The position numbers and the translations under genes were made by a program. From Eubacterium sp. (GTDB lineage: Bacteria; Bacillota; Clostridia; Peptostreptococcales; Anaerovoracaceae): DNA of 64,000 bases. The notes beneath the pieces were generated by a model. The model was given only the letters and a program-made list of their open reading frames with translations, was not told the origin of the DNA and did no database searches. Position 1 is the stretch's first letter. Each line of letters begins with the position of its first letter. The stretch covers positions 1,215-65,214 of the forward strand of contig JAETRU010000012.1 of assembly GCA_021769965.1 (NCBI GenBank). The letters run 5' to 3'. Shown piece by piece: positions 39,971 to 43,781 of this stretch.

Positions 39971-40056
39971 GGGCTAACAGGCTGGATTCTACTTTTAAGG
40001 GGTGTTCATCTGTTCAAATAACAGATATAATTACTTTGAAGGGAGGCAGCATCAGC

Positions 40057-40956
40057 ATGGATCTTATCAAAATAGGAAAGCATATTGCAGAGAAGCGAAA
40101 AGACTTAGGATTAACGCAAAAACAGCTCGCGGAGAAACTGGGCATGAGTGATAAATCCGTTTCCAAGTGGGAACGGGGCATATGCCTGCCGGACGTATCG
40201 GTCTATATGGAGTTATGTAATATCCTTGGGATCAGCATCAATGAATTCCTGGCCGGGGAAGATATCAAAGAGGAAGATATAGCAAAGCGGTCTGAAGATA
40301 ATCTGATTCAGATCACAAAGGACAGCAGACACAGGCAGAAGAATCTCAAAACCATCATAGCTGTTCTGATCATCATTACGATGATCGCGGTTGTTTCACT
40401 GGGAACTGTTATATTCCGCAGTTCAAGTCAGCCGCAGAATTACATCACCGCTTTTGACCGGGACAGCGCGGAGATGAAGACGGCACAGCTATTGTCCGGC
40501 ATAGACGGCGCGCTGCTTTTCAGATATTATTCAAAAGAAGAATTTAAGCAGCTGACGATATACATGTCCGAATACCGGTCAGGAAAGCTGATAACAAAGG
40601 AGTGTGCTGCGTCTTTCTCATATGAAGACATTGATTCTGCATCAGAGGGTATCATCGCCATTGTACCGGATTTTGAAGATTTTACGGTCAAGCTGGTCGT
40701 CGCAGATCAATCTGGCAGCGTTTCAACGGATATTCCGATTCTGGAGAATGTAAAGGACAGAGAATACTACGGAAGATCAGCTGTGCAGATCGAAGAAGCG
40801 GTCCCGATTCAGTATAGTGAAGAGCAGGGGCTGGCGGCGCTAATATACGGCAAAGACGGGCTGCATGCCAGTCCTGTTTCTGACATGGAAAGCGGGAATT
40901 TTGATACCGATAATGATTATGTCTACTATTTCTCATTTCAGTTTGAAAAATATTGA
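40057..40956 (+). CDS. membrane-anchored XRE-family HTH protein with C-terminal extracellular domain
   Basis: RKDLGLTQKQLAEKLGMSDKSVSKWERG HTH; one TM (IIAVLIIITMIAVVSLGTVIF). Confidence 0.88.
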   Translation: MDLIKIGKHIAEKRKDLGLTQKQLAEKLGMSDKSVSKWERGICLPDVSVYMELCNILGISINEFLAGEDIKEEDIAKRSEDNLIQITKDSRHRQKNLKTIIAVLIIITMIAVVSLGTVIFRSSSQPQNYITAFDRDSAEMKTAQLLSGIDGALLFRYYSKEEFKQLTIYMSEYRSGKLITKECAASFSYEDIDSASEGIIAIVPDFEDFTVKLVVADQSGSVSTDIPILENVKDREYYGRSAVQIEEAVPIQYSEEQGLAALIYGKDGLHASPVSDMESGNFDTDNDYVYYFSFQFEKY

Positions 40957-41111
40957 ATCGCGTGCGTTGCAGTAAGCTGTGCGTAAAGCTCGATCAGGAA
41001 CTGAGCAGAGGTTTTAGAACGGCCTTTACTCAGTTTTTTAGTGCGCTAAATTTTTATGCAGGTGAGTTTTTCTGTGATATCTTTCAAATAGGTATTAGAT
41101 ACAATCTGTGC

Positions 41112-41380
41112 CGCCGCTTTTTTTGCTTTTTGGCGCTTATACGGCGTTGCCTGACTGTCGCGCGCCGCTTTTTCGCAGTATTTTACGGATATACGGCGCG
41201 AAAAGACAGATGTAAGCTTGCTTTTACTTTTTCTTTACAGCTGCATGGAGCATACAGACTGAAAATATCTGTACAGCAGAGTGCAGCGCGCCGTATAGCC
41301 GCATTATGGATCATAAATGTAGCGTGAATCAGATAACGGGCGCCGTATGAGGCATTTTTTTCGCAAAAAATGGCGCGCAG
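41112..41380. repeat. non-coding palindromic element, copy B
   Basis: Units 41112-41146, 41163-41198, 41289-41324, 41341-41375; motif blocks align to copy A at constant offset 40109-40110. Confidence 0.78.
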
Positions 41381-41666
41381 TCGGTACAATACAAGAATTC
41401 TCCGCAGAAAAGATGGATCATTCTGTACGGCAGCAGGTTTTACATGGCGGCTGTAGAGTAGAAAACAGCAATTGACTGTGAACAGTAATATGTATGTAAA
41501 GGCATACACAAACTTTCCAACTTTTCTGTGGCATATCGCGGAAGAGTATGATAAAATATTCCTGTTAGTGTATATTAAGAAGAGAAACGAAAGCGCGTTT
41601 CCGCGTTTCAAAGAAGAGATTTCCAGACTACGTCTGATATATTATAACCAGGAGGAATGAAGAAAC

Positions 41667-43019
41667 ATGAAATTTTATCTCGCACTGTGGTTTGCGAAAC
41701 TGATCAACGTGATCATTAACATTGTGGACAAGAGCTGCGGATCCAACTTTTCCGGGGAGAAGGCCATGCGGATCGATCCGCAGATGGTAGCTCACTTTAA
41801 GGGGATCGACTATTCCAAGGTCCTTTTTATCACCGGAACCAACGGCAAGTCCACCACGAATAACCTGATCACTCATATTTTCCGTTCAAACGGCAAGAAG
41901 GTGGTGGCCAATCTGGAAGGAGCTAATCTGATCTATGGTGTGGCTACGGCTTTATCAAAGGCTTCTACGCTGACGGGCCGCATCAAGGCGGATTATATCA
42001 TCTTTGAGACGGACGAGCGGTATCTGCCGCTGATCCACAAGCAGCTGCCTGCCGGCAACATCATGATCACCAATCTGCAGAAGGATCAGGTGCAGAGAAA
42101 CGGAGACCCGGATTTCATTTACCGCAAGATCTTTGACGGACTGCCATCGGGAATCAGATTCTTCCTCAATAACGAAGAACCGAGGACCCGTTCTTTCGAC
42201 GCCAAGTCTGATCATATCGTTACCTACGGCGTGGAGCGTCATCCGGAATCCTTTACCAAAGGCGGCAGCTTTCCGACCATGGCGTGTCCGCGGTGCAGAC
42301 ACAAGATCGTCTTTGATTATTACAACAATGACGGCGTGGGAAAATTCCACTGCAGCCACTGCGATCTGGCCAGCAGCGAGAAGGCAGATTACACGATCAC
42401 TGATGTGGACTTTGCGGGCCGCAGCTTCAAGCTGGGCGATGTGGCGTTCACGATGCCGTACGATACGCCGTATATGTGCTATAATTACGCTGGGGCGCTG
42501 GCCGTGGCAAAGGAGCTGGGCGGCATAGAGCCTGCGGACGCAGCAAAGGCTTTCGGCAGCTTCAAAAATGTGGGCGGCCGGTTTGAGATCCTGAAATACA
42601 AGGATAAGACGATCAAATACATGCGTATCAAACAGGAAAATCCAGAGACGCTGCAGACCTGTATCAACGTTATGGCGGCGGATCCTGAGAAAAAGATGAT
42701 CTGCCTGGGGCTGTGTCCTCTCATCGACATGATCCCGCATTACACCAATTCTTTCTACGCGTTTGACTGCGATCTGTCTGAGCTGGTGAAATCTGATGTG
42801 GAAAAGTATTTCTGCTTCTCGGAAGCAGTCTGCTACGATACGGCAAACCGTCTGATCTATGAAGGAGTGGACCCGTCTGTGATCTCCATTGAAGAAACGG
42901 AAGAGGTGGAGACCATTTTCCGCCAGATCGAAGAAGCGGAGACAAAGAATATTTACCTGATCACATGGCTGCATACCTTTGATCATATGAAGAAGTACAT
43001 TGAAAAGGAGGGAAAATAA
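41667..43019 (+). CDS. murT: MurT-like Mur ligase (lipid II amidotransferase ligase subunit, divergent)
   Basis: ITGTNGKSTT P-loop, CPRC/CSHC zinc finger, VGGRFE; adjacent to gatD-like gene. Confidence 0.8.
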   Translation: MKFYLALWFAKLINVIINIVDKSCGSNFSGEKAMRIDPQMVAHFKGIDYSKVLFITGTNGKSTTNNLITHIFRSNGKKVVANLEGANLIYGVATALSKASTLTGRIKADYIIFETDERYLPLIHKQLPAGNIMITNLQKDQVQRNGDPDFIYRKIFDGLPSGIRFFLNNEEPRTRSFDAKSDHIVTYGVERHPESFTKGGSFPTMACPRCRHKIVFDYYNNDGVGKFHCSHCDLASSEKADYTITDVDFAGRSFKLGDVAFTMPYDTPYMCYNYAGALAVAKELGGIEPADAAKAFGSFKNVGGRFEILKYKDKTIKYMRIKQENPETLQTCINVMAADPEKKMICLGLCPLIDMIPHYTNSFYAFDCDLSELVKSDVEKYFCFSEAVCYDTANRLIYEGVDPSVISIEETEEVETIFRQIEEAETKNIYLITWLHTFDHMKKYIEKEGK

Positions 43020-43781
43020 ATGAGAGAGTTAAGAATCGCATGGCTTTTCCCTGATACCCTGTATCTTCACGGAGAGAGAGGGAATATACTGGCATTACAG
43101 AGGATCATCGCTCTGAAAGGACTGGAAGCGGCGGTGGATCAGATCGACTTTGAAACAGAGGGCTTTGACCCGATGAATTACGATATCATCTTCTGTCCGC
43201 CGGGAGAAATCGTATCTTTTCCTGTAGTGTTAGAGTATCTAAAGCCGTTAAAGTCCAGGTTTGAGGAGTTCGTGTCCGATGGACGCCCTTTGATCGCGAC
43301 GGGAACATCTGCAGGTCTGTGGTGCCGTCAGGTGCAGCGGGCTGACGGAAGCTCCTTTGAGGCGATGGGGCTTCTGCAGGCGACAGCAAAGGAGAATGAA
43401 GCCGTTTACGGGGACGACGTGTATTTTACCTGTCAGTACGGCGGCGCGGAAATGGAGGTCCTGGGCAACCAGATCCAGATGGCGGATCTTATTTCGGAGG
43501 GCGAGGAGCCTTTCGGACGGCTGATCTACGGCTACGGCAACACGGGCAGAGACCGGCAGGAGGGATTCAGGAAGGAAAACTCTGTTTTCACCAATACTCT
43601 GGGGCCGATGCTGGTGACCAATCCGTGGCTGACGGAAAAGATCGTGGAAACGGCGGCAGAGAAGGCCGGACTTGCGATATCCGGCGGAGCGCTGGATACC
43701 AGTCTGGAGCAGAGATCCTTTGACGCGAAGAAAAAGTTTATAGCGGGCAAGACGACCCGGTTAACGAATTGTAAAGAATAG
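43020..43781 (+). CDS. gatD: GatD/CobQ-like glutamine amidotransferase subunit, catalytic residues apparently lost
   Basis: WLFPDTLYLHGERGNILAL N-terminus, GYGN, GPML..NP; G in place of the catalytic Cys and L in place of His. Confidence 0.75.
   Translation: MRELRIAWLFPDTLYLHGERGNILALQRIIALKGLEAAVDQIDFETEGFDPMNYDIIFCPPGEIVSFPVVLEYLKPLKSRFEEFVSDGRPLIATGTSAGLWCRQVQRADGSSFEAMGLLQATAKENEAVYGDDVYFTCQYGGAEMEVLGNQIQMADLISEGEEPFGRLIYGYGNTGRDRQEGFRKENSVFTNTLGPMLVTNPWLTEKIVETAAEKAGLAISGGALDTSLEQRSFDAKKKFIAGKTTRLTNCKE

Follow-up and report, generated by a model that had tools for sequence, protein, structure and literature searches.

A MurT/GatD-like pair with a conserved ligase core and a glutaminase subunit devoid of catalytic residues in Anaerovoracaceae: a putative ligase for an amine other than glutamine-derived ammonia

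The DNA analyzed here is a stretch of 64,000 nucleotides (the window) of contig JAETRU010000012.1 from a Eubacterium sp. of the family Anaerovoracaceae, whose assembly (GCA_021769965.1) measures 2.99 Mb and is 97% complete. It contains two adjacent genes in the same orientation, encoding a MurT-like Mur ligase and a GatD-like subunit (Table 1). The start codon of the GatD-like gene directly abuts the stop codon of the MurT-like gene and its ribosome-binding site (RBS) lies within the last MurT codons; therefore, the two genes are translationally coupled. The same gene order in a two-gene operon is found for MurT/GatD, the glutamine-hydrolysing lipid II isoglutaminyl synthase (EC 6.3.5.13), which is known from S. 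aureus, S. pneumoniae, S. pyogenes and M. tuberculosis (structures 6GS2, 6H5E, 7Q8E, 6FQB and 9SQ9). Adjacency and coupling are observed in the window, while an obligate complex of the two proteins is predicted from the known system. An earlier sequence-only reading took GatD to be catalytically dead and the pair to be an ammonia-dependent or neofunctionalised peptidoglycan ligase; the GatD and MurT motifs on which it relied were all found where it had placed them. In most of 80 related loci, the MurT-like gene is likewise followed by the GatD-like gene (MurT-like in 78, GatD-like in 75).

Table 1 Features of the locus and the MurE genes of the source genome (ORF, open reading frame; positions are those of the window unless a contig is named)
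Feature	Position	Strand	Remarks
RBS of MurT-like gene	41650..41657	+	AGGAGGAA, 9 nt before ATG at 41667, read directly
MurT-like Mur ligase, 450 aa	41667..43019	+	Intact ATP-ligase core, Cys4 zinc ribbon, remodelled C-terminal domain
Translational coupling junction	43005..43022	+	RBS AAGGAGGG within the last MurT codons; TAA stop directly abuts the GatD-like ATG
GatD-like subunit, 253 aa	43020..43781	+	Complete GatD fold, without glutaminase residues
Small conserved ORF, 87 aa	43799..44062	+	RBS TAGGAGGAAG; ATG 17 nt past the GatD-like stop
MurE genes of the source genome	C82:24956-26365 and C14:110859-112235		Loci L128, L127

The MurT-like protein has the architecture of MurT, with a truncated N-terminus, a Mur ligase middle domain with the P-loop (GTNGKS, residues 57–62), a Cys4 zinc ribbon (C207, C210, C229 and C232) and a MurT_C domain. 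Pfam matches to MurT_C (PF08353, 52 bits) and Mur_ligase_M (PF08245, 36 bits) were both above their cut-offs, and the NCBIfam MurT model scored 146 bits against an equivalog cut-off of 800. With HMMER, the protein matched S. aureus MurT (6GS2_B) at E = 6e-39, and the best Foldseek matches of its AlphaFold2 model, which has a predicted local distance difference test (pLDDT) score of 85.8, were solved MurT chains. The features of the Mur ligase superfamily are present: the P-loop, the Mg-binding Glu, the central-domain Asn/Asp/Arg and a Rossmann-like C-terminal domain. Among 119 MurT-like homologues of at least 55% identity, TGTNGKS, E114, D116, E117, R118, TNLxKDQxxRNG and the four ribbon cysteines are invariant; when canonical MurTs are included, G304-R305-x-E307, K322, P326, D354, D367, D369 and R395 are invariant as well. 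The ATP-ligase half is thus intact as far as can be judged from its residues.

It was proposed earlier that MurT keeps its P-loop and zinc finger while its C-terminal motifs diverge (KQENPE, residues 322–327; NSFYAFDCD, 361–369), and an alignment with seven canonical MurTs made with MAFFT bears this out, the differences being concentrated in the C-terminal domain. K322-N325-P326 is conserved in the MurT-like proteins, where two additional residues (QE) in the K-NP motif give KQENPE, and three residues are inserted before the next C-terminal loop. In that loop the acidic DxDADGxD has become DMIPHYTN (in the alignment with S. aureus MurT, DNAADG has become DMIPHY), and the confidence of the model is low exactly there, at 354–359. 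The remodelled loop is homologous to the specificity loop of MurE (DNPR/DDPN).

On the GatD-like side, DGRPLIATGTSAGL occupies residues 87–100, LWCRQ residues 100–104, GNQIQ residues 149–153 and FTNTLGP residues 190–196. The protein, for which solved GatD chains gave E values of 1e-13 to 3e-17, was aligned with 5N9M, 6GS2 and 9SQ9 at residue level. Against S. aureus GatD, HMMER placed ATGTSA at the position of ICGGYQ, turning C94 into G95 of a TGTS motif, and FTNTLGP at that of GTYLHGP, turning H189 into L194; GFENH stands opposite GNQIQ and the glutamine-sequestering R128 opposite A128. The third residue of the triad is contributed by MurT, and here D349 of S. aureus MurT (GRDTSW) stands opposite N361 (YTNSFY), a correspondence that was repeated in the independent MAFFT alignment. 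Position 361 is Asn in 108 of the 119 MurT-like homologues and Asp in none.

It was reported that S. aureus GatD-C94G loses its glutamine-dependent activity (Muench 2012, PMC3266927) and that neither GatD-C94S/G nor MurT-D349N leaves any activity although the protein stays folded (Noeldeke 2018, PMC6113224). G95 and N361 reproduce the published GatD-C94G and MurT-D349N; therefore, the window naturally carries two inactivating substitutions. All three triad residues (Cys and His of GatD, Asp of MurT) are replaced, and the alignments, together with 121 close GatD-like homologues, confirm at the level of sequence that the glutaminase is dead, with the triad gone from both subunits across the whole family. 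From this, it is predicted that lipid II amidation would show no dependence on glutamine.

The fold, on the other hand, is kept. The AlphaFold2 model of the GatD-like protein (pLDDT 96.8) superposes on S. aureus GatD with a template-modelling (TM) score of 0.88–0.93 and a root-mean-square deviation of about 2 Å, and the interface motifs YGxGN..EG and NP are shared with the known MurT/GatD. Judged as a class I (triad) glutamine amidotransferase, the protein lacks the Cys-His pair at the catalytic positions and retains the fold in the model. In fold alignments, the two window proteins are 22–25% identical to solved MurT/GatD chains. The GatD-like protein scores 17 bits against Pfam GATase_3 (below the cut-off of 27) and 76 bits against the NCBIfam GatD model, whose equivalog cut-off is 400.

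The replaced motifs were found to be a property of a family. In a set of 120–121 close GatD-like homologues (49–99% identity), G95, M154, N192, L194 and P196 occur in 121 of 121 sequences and T94, T96, S97, Q151, I152 and Q153 each in more than 92%, which gives the family motifs TGTS / GNQIQM / FTNxLGP. An exhaustive search of 1.84 billion cluster representatives returned 952 matches (62 below 1e-30), and the best 150 of these were aligned and used for a tree with three clades. Clade A (79 rows, support 100; xGTS / GxQIQ / FTNxLGP) includes the GatD-like protein of the window, clade B (32 rows; TGN / GF(I/V)NK) is a second Cys-less clade, and clade C (30 rows) has the canonical ICGGYQ / GFENH / HGP. 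When 74 representatives of clade A were compared with 15 canonical sequences, the fold and interface positions were common to both. In the pocket, about a dozen positions are changed to other, equally conserved residues, the switches being Y17H, C95G, G96T, G132D, N133D, E151Q, N152I, H153Q, R156D, Y192N and H194L. Among the 74 representatives, Q151 is found in 100%, D133 in 97%, I152 in 96%, G95 in 93% and H17 in 73%, at a mean column identity of about 31% in a comparable alignment.

A useless pocket would drift, and the pocket residues of clade A are invariant; therefore, the pocket has been rebuilt and not relaxed. On the evidence of these alignments, the motif replacement is a family trait under selection and is attributable neither to decay nor to chance or sequencing error. 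The sequence-only reading had spoken of a pseudo-enzyme partner. This description fits as far as the loss of glutaminase is concerned and fails in the sense of decay; because the replacement residues are among the most conserved in the clade, the partner is, by its sequence, better called a repurposed subunit than a decayed pseudo-enzyme. As a separate observation, the GatD-like protein diverges faster than the MurT-like protein (identity to Ihubacter sp. rT4E-8 is 71% for the former and 91% for the latter; for E. limosum the values are 50% and 63%). Public databases label the GatD-like proteins "cobalamin biosynthesis protein CobQ" or "lipid II isoglutaminyl synthase (glutamine-hydrolysing)"; both labels appear wrong in view of the missing catalytic residues, CobQ being a mislabel.

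A search of the source genome with MurT_C, the NCBIfam GatD model and GATase_3 revealed no second MurT/GatD pair in the 97%-complete assembly; the sequence-only reading had suggested looking for a canonical paralogue. The only other GATase_3 matches are CobQ and CobB, encoded in a cobalamin cluster upstream in the window. These genuine CobQ and CobB proteins share the fold family of their glutaminase domains with the GatD-like protein, which differs from them in having no synthetase domain and no Cys/His and in being paired with a MurT-like ligase.

Compared with MurT/GatD, the pair differs in the replacement of the triad and the glutamine-binding Arg by other conserved residues, in the remodelled C-terminal loop and K-NP motif, in its separate clade and in scores far below the equivalog cut-offs. 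It resembles the S. aureus mutants GatD-C94G and MurT-D349N in having Gly and Asn at the respective positions by nature; the engineered mutants are otherwise wild-type, with weak ammonia activity at high pH, whereas about a dozen further pocket positions are co-changed in the window family. The acyl-phosphate chemistry driven by ATP is shared with MurD, MurE and MurF, and so is the C-terminal loop that corresponds to DNPR / D(D,N)P(N,A) of MurE and in which the specificity of MurD, MurE and MurF for the incoming amino acid is set. Unlike those enzymes, the MurT types have no UDP-binding N-terminal domain, act on a lipid-linked precursor and need a GatD-type partner. We know of no Mur ligase that adds a residue to the α-carboxyl of D-Glu.

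Named relatives put the organism near Ihubacter and Emergencia within Anaerovoracaceae: the MurT-like protein is 91% identical to that of Ihubacter sp. rT4E-8, and the GatD-like protein 84% to that of an Emergencia metagenome-assembled genome (MAG). The orthologue group of the pair, here termed type I, extends to Eubacterium barkeri and eight named Acetobacterium species, with identities of 61–65% for MurT and 44–51% for GatD. All 53 genomes of the Eubacteriaceae were searched. One high-scoring type-I orthologue (244–328 bits) was found in 43 of them, including E. limosum and E. maltosivorans (exact sequence matches), with E. callanderi in the same cluster; the Eubacterium GatD-like proteins read TGTS / GNQIQM / FTNTLGP. 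Seven genomes gave only a match of 100–117 bits. Four of these seven are three named Pseudoramibacter (alactolyticus, porci and sp.) and one Eubacteriaceae bacterium, and the five that were aligned are all canonical (ICGGYQ, GFENHSGK, TYSHG). In two further genomes, a canonical copy is accompanied by a diverged paralogue of clade A (about 227 bits), and the remaining one, an incomplete assembly, has only a fragment at a contig end.

This distribution may be set against wall chemistry. In group-B peptidoglycan, the cross-link runs from the α-carboxyl of D-Glu through D-lysine (D-Lys) or D-ornithine (D-Orn) to the D-Ala of a second stem. The archetype of this wall is taken here to be that of E. 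limosum (formerly Butyribacterium rettgeri), and A. woodii and E. (Clostridium) barkeri presumably have the same type, the assignment of Acetobacterium and E. barkeri to group B being one that is reported in the older literature. Pseudoramibacter is said to have been separated partly on account of a different (A-type) wall. The wall peptidoglycan of E. limosum was found to contain Ala, Glu, Lys, Orn and Ser (PMC4791908), and a recent review assigns Eubacterium to type B2-α (PMC11382707). Eubacterium and Acetobacterium have type I only and Pseudoramibacter is canonical; therefore, within one family the glutaminase-dead pair stands alone in the lineage with D-Glu cross-links, and the canonical pair is that of the sister genus. 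As far as sequences can tell, this taxonomic pattern favors an amino-acid ligase over plain use of ammonia, and with it the neofunctionalised branch of the earlier proposal.

A possible source of the amine shows the same distribution. Five named type-I genomes all encode a protein similar to ornithine racemase (Orr), with 375–437 bits to the NCBIfam Orr model (cut-off 480), and P. alactolyticus has only alanine racemase and YggS. Across the family, an Orr-like gene (377–449 bits, always below 480) is present in 41 of the 43 type-I carriers and in none of the seven canonical-only genomes; of the two carriers with no match, one is a highly fragmented assembly and in the other the gene is broken into two parts. 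The gene adjoins leuS and rnhA, and not ornithine-fermentation genes, in E. limosum, A. carbinolicum and E. barkeri. Given this co-distribution in a leuS/rnhA context, the acetogens would have a housekeeping source of D-diamino acid alongside the dead pair, and the Eubacteriaceae racemase is a candidate supplier of D-Orn or D-Lys for the wall. The Orr-like proteins from this context form a distinct subfamily, and their genes are oriented divergently from leuS-rnhA (for example L154:6838-7896 in E. limosum, L155:6211-7383 and L156:6725-7891).

In the source genome itself, a true Orr (521 bits) is present, and a sub-cut-off Orr-like racemase lies within a catabolic MttB / URO-D / racemase cluster. 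The latter was rejected as evidence for D-Orn in the wall, since it sits in that cluster. The cluster (C79:38600-45100; L153:5644-12141) comprises alanine-racemase-like, URO-D/MtaA-like and Orr-like genes, an MttB-family methyltransferase and a transporter of the Na+/H+ antiporter family, and probably serves the breakdown of a methylated amine or amino acid.

Taken together, these data suggest, at somewhat less than an even chance, that the pair is an ATP-dependent ligase acting on the α-carboxyl of D-Glu, to which it attaches not ammonia derived from glutamine but another amine, probably D-Orn or D-Lys. In the proposed mechanism, the MurT-like protein would bind ATP and the lipid-linked stem peptide and form an acyl-phosphate on the D-iso-Glu α-carboxyl of lipid II. 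The nitrogen would not come from glutamine hydrolysis or tunnelled ammonia; the nucleophile would be a free amine larger than ammonia, bound where the remodelled C-terminal loops of MurT meet the rebuilt pocket of the GatD-like protein, which would be retained as an obligatory partner with a conserved former active site. In this orthologue group, the amine would most likely be a D-diamino acid, D-Orn or D-Lys, and the product would be the D-Glu-α-linked residue that forms the cross-bridge of group-B peptidoglycan. We infer the acceptor from homology, and also infer the identity of the amine and the substrate-binding role of the pocket. The more specific proposal, held more tentatively still, is that the type-I group is the missing enzyme of group B, a MurT-derived ligase with a non-catalytic GatD that attaches D-Orn or D-Lys to the D-Glu α-carboxyl. 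To our knowledge, the step that places the cross-bridge residue on the α-carboxyl of D-Glu still lacks an assigned gene in this wall type, which was described more than 50 years ago. Full-text searches returned no paper on Cys-less GatD homologues or on a bacterial, MurT-like gene for the B-type bridge ligase. What is new here is the contrast of Eubacterium and Acetobacterium with Pseudoramibacter, together with the co-distributed Orr-like racemase.

The gene context in Acetobacterium counts for the proposed ligase: MnmA and GlmM are neighbors of the pair, followed downstream by GlmS under control of a glmS ribozyme, and the presence of glmM and glmS is a cell-wall context. Several points weigh against it. 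The Eubacteriaceae contrast amounts to one or two evolutionary events among relatives that are not independent and is no statistical proof, and the group-B (Acetobacterium, E. barkeri) and A-type (Pseudoramibacter) wall assignments used for it are those of the older literature. In none of the 80 loci does a racemase or D-amino-acid gene adjoin the pair. Occurrence of the type-I pair is uneven within the window's own family (about 13 of 120 genera sampled), and literature searches yielded no data on the wall chemistry of Anaerovoracaceae. Moreover, one of the two MurE proteins of the source genome is of the meso-diaminopimelate (mDAP) type, and mDAP is atypical of group-B walls.

The two MurEs deserve comment. 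One reads DNPR (mDAP-type) and is encoded in the dcw cluster next to MurF; the other reads EDPR and is 58% identical to the sole MurE of E. minutum, while the MurEs of E. limosum and Acetobacterium read DNPA. With two MurEs (DNPR and EDPR), the motif is ambiguous as a predictor of wall type for the source genome and was set aside for that purpose. The two proteins may serve the vegetative wall and the spore cortex, respectively, or different residues at position 3; the former is suggested because the source organism sporulates, a SpoIVA gene lying upstream of the pair in the window.

Two alternatives are contradicted by the family alignments. That the pair is a decaying, non-functional remnant of MurT/GatD would agree with the loss of the catalytic residues and with scores far under the NCBIfam cut-offs, and is in effect refuted by conservation: the frames are intact and translationally coupled, most of the 80 loci, which span at least two named families, hold the pair, and strong sequence conservation goes with confident models of both proteins. 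It is also very improbable that the pair is still a glutamine amidotransferase with an alternative nucleophile (Cys102, the Thr or Ser of TGTS, or His17). C102, which lies seven residues past G95 in LWCRQ and had been mentioned earlier as a caveat, is present in the window protein, and H17 takes the place of the active-site-capping Tyr17 in nearly three quarters of the clade. However, among 121 close homologues the C102 position is Cys in 55 and Gly in 61, positions 96 and 97 are variable across the clade (T, S, N, A, G, L), the elbow residue is an invariant Gly, and His189, Asp349 and Arg128 are lost too. In the clade alignment, the nucleophile elbow has no other conserved Cys, Ser or Thr and the catalytic positions have no conserved Cys or His; hence C102, T96, S97 and H17 were all rejected as nucleophiles, none being conserved at the elbow.

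The main rival to an amine ligase is an ammonia-dependent lipid II isoglutaminyl synthase that makes D-iso-Gln, with the GatD-like protein as a structural partner only, kept because MurT needs it for activity; we consider this rather unlikely although it has a real precedent. S. aureus MurT/GatD-C94G amidates lipid II with free ammonia at pH 8.5, while MurT alone is inactive (PMC3266927), and this too tells against the proposal of a larger amine. The ligase core is intact, and the hosts are ammonia-producing amino-acid fermenters of gut and rumen, with Orr and the MttB catabolic cluster in the source genome. The same mutant, however, had no ammonia activity at pH 7.5 (PMC3266927), and mere ammonia use would not account for a former pocket rebuilt with clade-invariant residues. 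E. limosum and Acetobacterium have only this pair, yet their D-Glu α-carboxyl reportedly bears the cross-bridge in place of an amide. The second Cys-less clade and the tandem duplicated pairs with an ATP-grasp ligase described below are hard to square with simple amidation. A ligase for some other amine (glycine, or a polyamine such as putrescine or cadaverine) or for another carboxylate of the stem peptide or of another envelope polymer is unlikely, and a little more so. In various bacteria, the D-Glu α-carboxyl is known to bear glycine, glycine amide, D-Ala amide or cadaverine. The fully remodelled specificity loop (DMIPHYTN, with QE inserted in K-NP), the several Cys-less clades with differing motifs and the mDAP-type MurE all speak for such a ligase. 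Against it stand the retained hallmarks that set MurT apart from MurC–F (truncated N-terminus, zinc ribbon, MurT_C domain) and the fact that the orthologue group follows those taxa in which D-Glu is known to be substituted with D-Orn or D-Lys. The earlier proposal of an ammonia-dependent or neofunctionalised ligase is thus supported as far as sequence allows.

The wider distribution of the pair was also surveyed. Among 120 genera sampled from the window's own family, any GatD-like gene was found in 37; of these, about 13 have a type-I orthologue, five are canonical and most others are Cys-less and clade-B-like, one genome of the same genus included. Across the class, a clade-A match of at least 140 bits was found in 35 of 399 sampled genomes (about 9%), and a type-I orthologue of at least 250 bits in 11 of the 399, from at least six families. 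No MurT/GatD form is commoner in the window's own family than the second Cys-less GatD type (TGNAxE(I/V)FG ... GFKSQF ... ATYxIGP). This type occurs in G024, which is of the same genus, and in genomes G003, G015, G021, G027, G031, G067, G068, G082, G096 and G112 (loci L095-L107), some of which carry two copies 3–4 kb apart.

In Mogibacterium-like rumen genomes, two diverged dead pairs lie in tandem and are followed by an ATP-grasp ligase. This cassette (L077, L081, L082, L083 and L085; rumen Clostridiales and Mogibacterium MAGs) has a protein of about 720 aa before the pairs, and the ligase, which is CPSase_L_D2-like, and another conserved gene after them; it looks like a multi-step peptide-building system. 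A relative rich in G, A, R and P (P0169) proved to be the second copy of the tandem rumen pairs, and no named Actinobacteria are among the members.

As to neighboring genes, the pair in Anaerovoracaceae is preceded by cardiolipin synthase or by GpsA/MiaB and followed by a small ORF, a LysM protein, an M50-type peptidase and ClpB; a K+-channel-like protein is also among the neighbors in the 80 loci. Homologues of the 87-aa ORF lie directly 3′ of the pair in 14 related Anaerovoracaceae loci. The ORF matched no Pfam family and is possibly the third gene of the operon, its membership being uncertain. A cardiolipin synthase gene directly precedes the pair in most relatives; in the window, its place (40036-41666) is taken by an HTH_3 (XRE-type) protein with a membrane segment and by about 700 bp of non-coding DNA with a palindromic element. 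Promoter-like hexamers at 41528-41576 are no commoner than in shuffled sequence, and no promoter is claimed. No Rfam element was detected upstream of the pair, and thus no riboswitch or T-box that could name the amine; the glmS ribozymes of the Eubacteriaceae loci are the only RNA elements of this kind that were seen.

In staphylococci, pneumococci and mycobacteria, the wall-synthesis step catalyzed by MurT/GatD is essential and a drug target, and substitution of D-Glu alters how host NOD receptors and lysozyme-type enzymes see gut peptidoglycan. A large sister family that lacks the glutaminase and keeps the ligase would imply that many Clostridia, from gut and rumen as well as acetogenic, modify their walls in a way not yet described, and in the meantime the erroneous CobQ and glutamine-hydrolysing GatD annotations propagate. 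E. limosum and A. woodii are culturable and genetically tractable, so the question is directly testable. If the pair is indeed the ligase of the B-type bridge, Emergencia, Ihubacter, Mogibacterium and the other Anaerovoracaceae that carry it should have D-Glu-cross-linked (B-type) walls, and the other Cys-less MurT/GatD clades would be a ligase family with different amine specificities.

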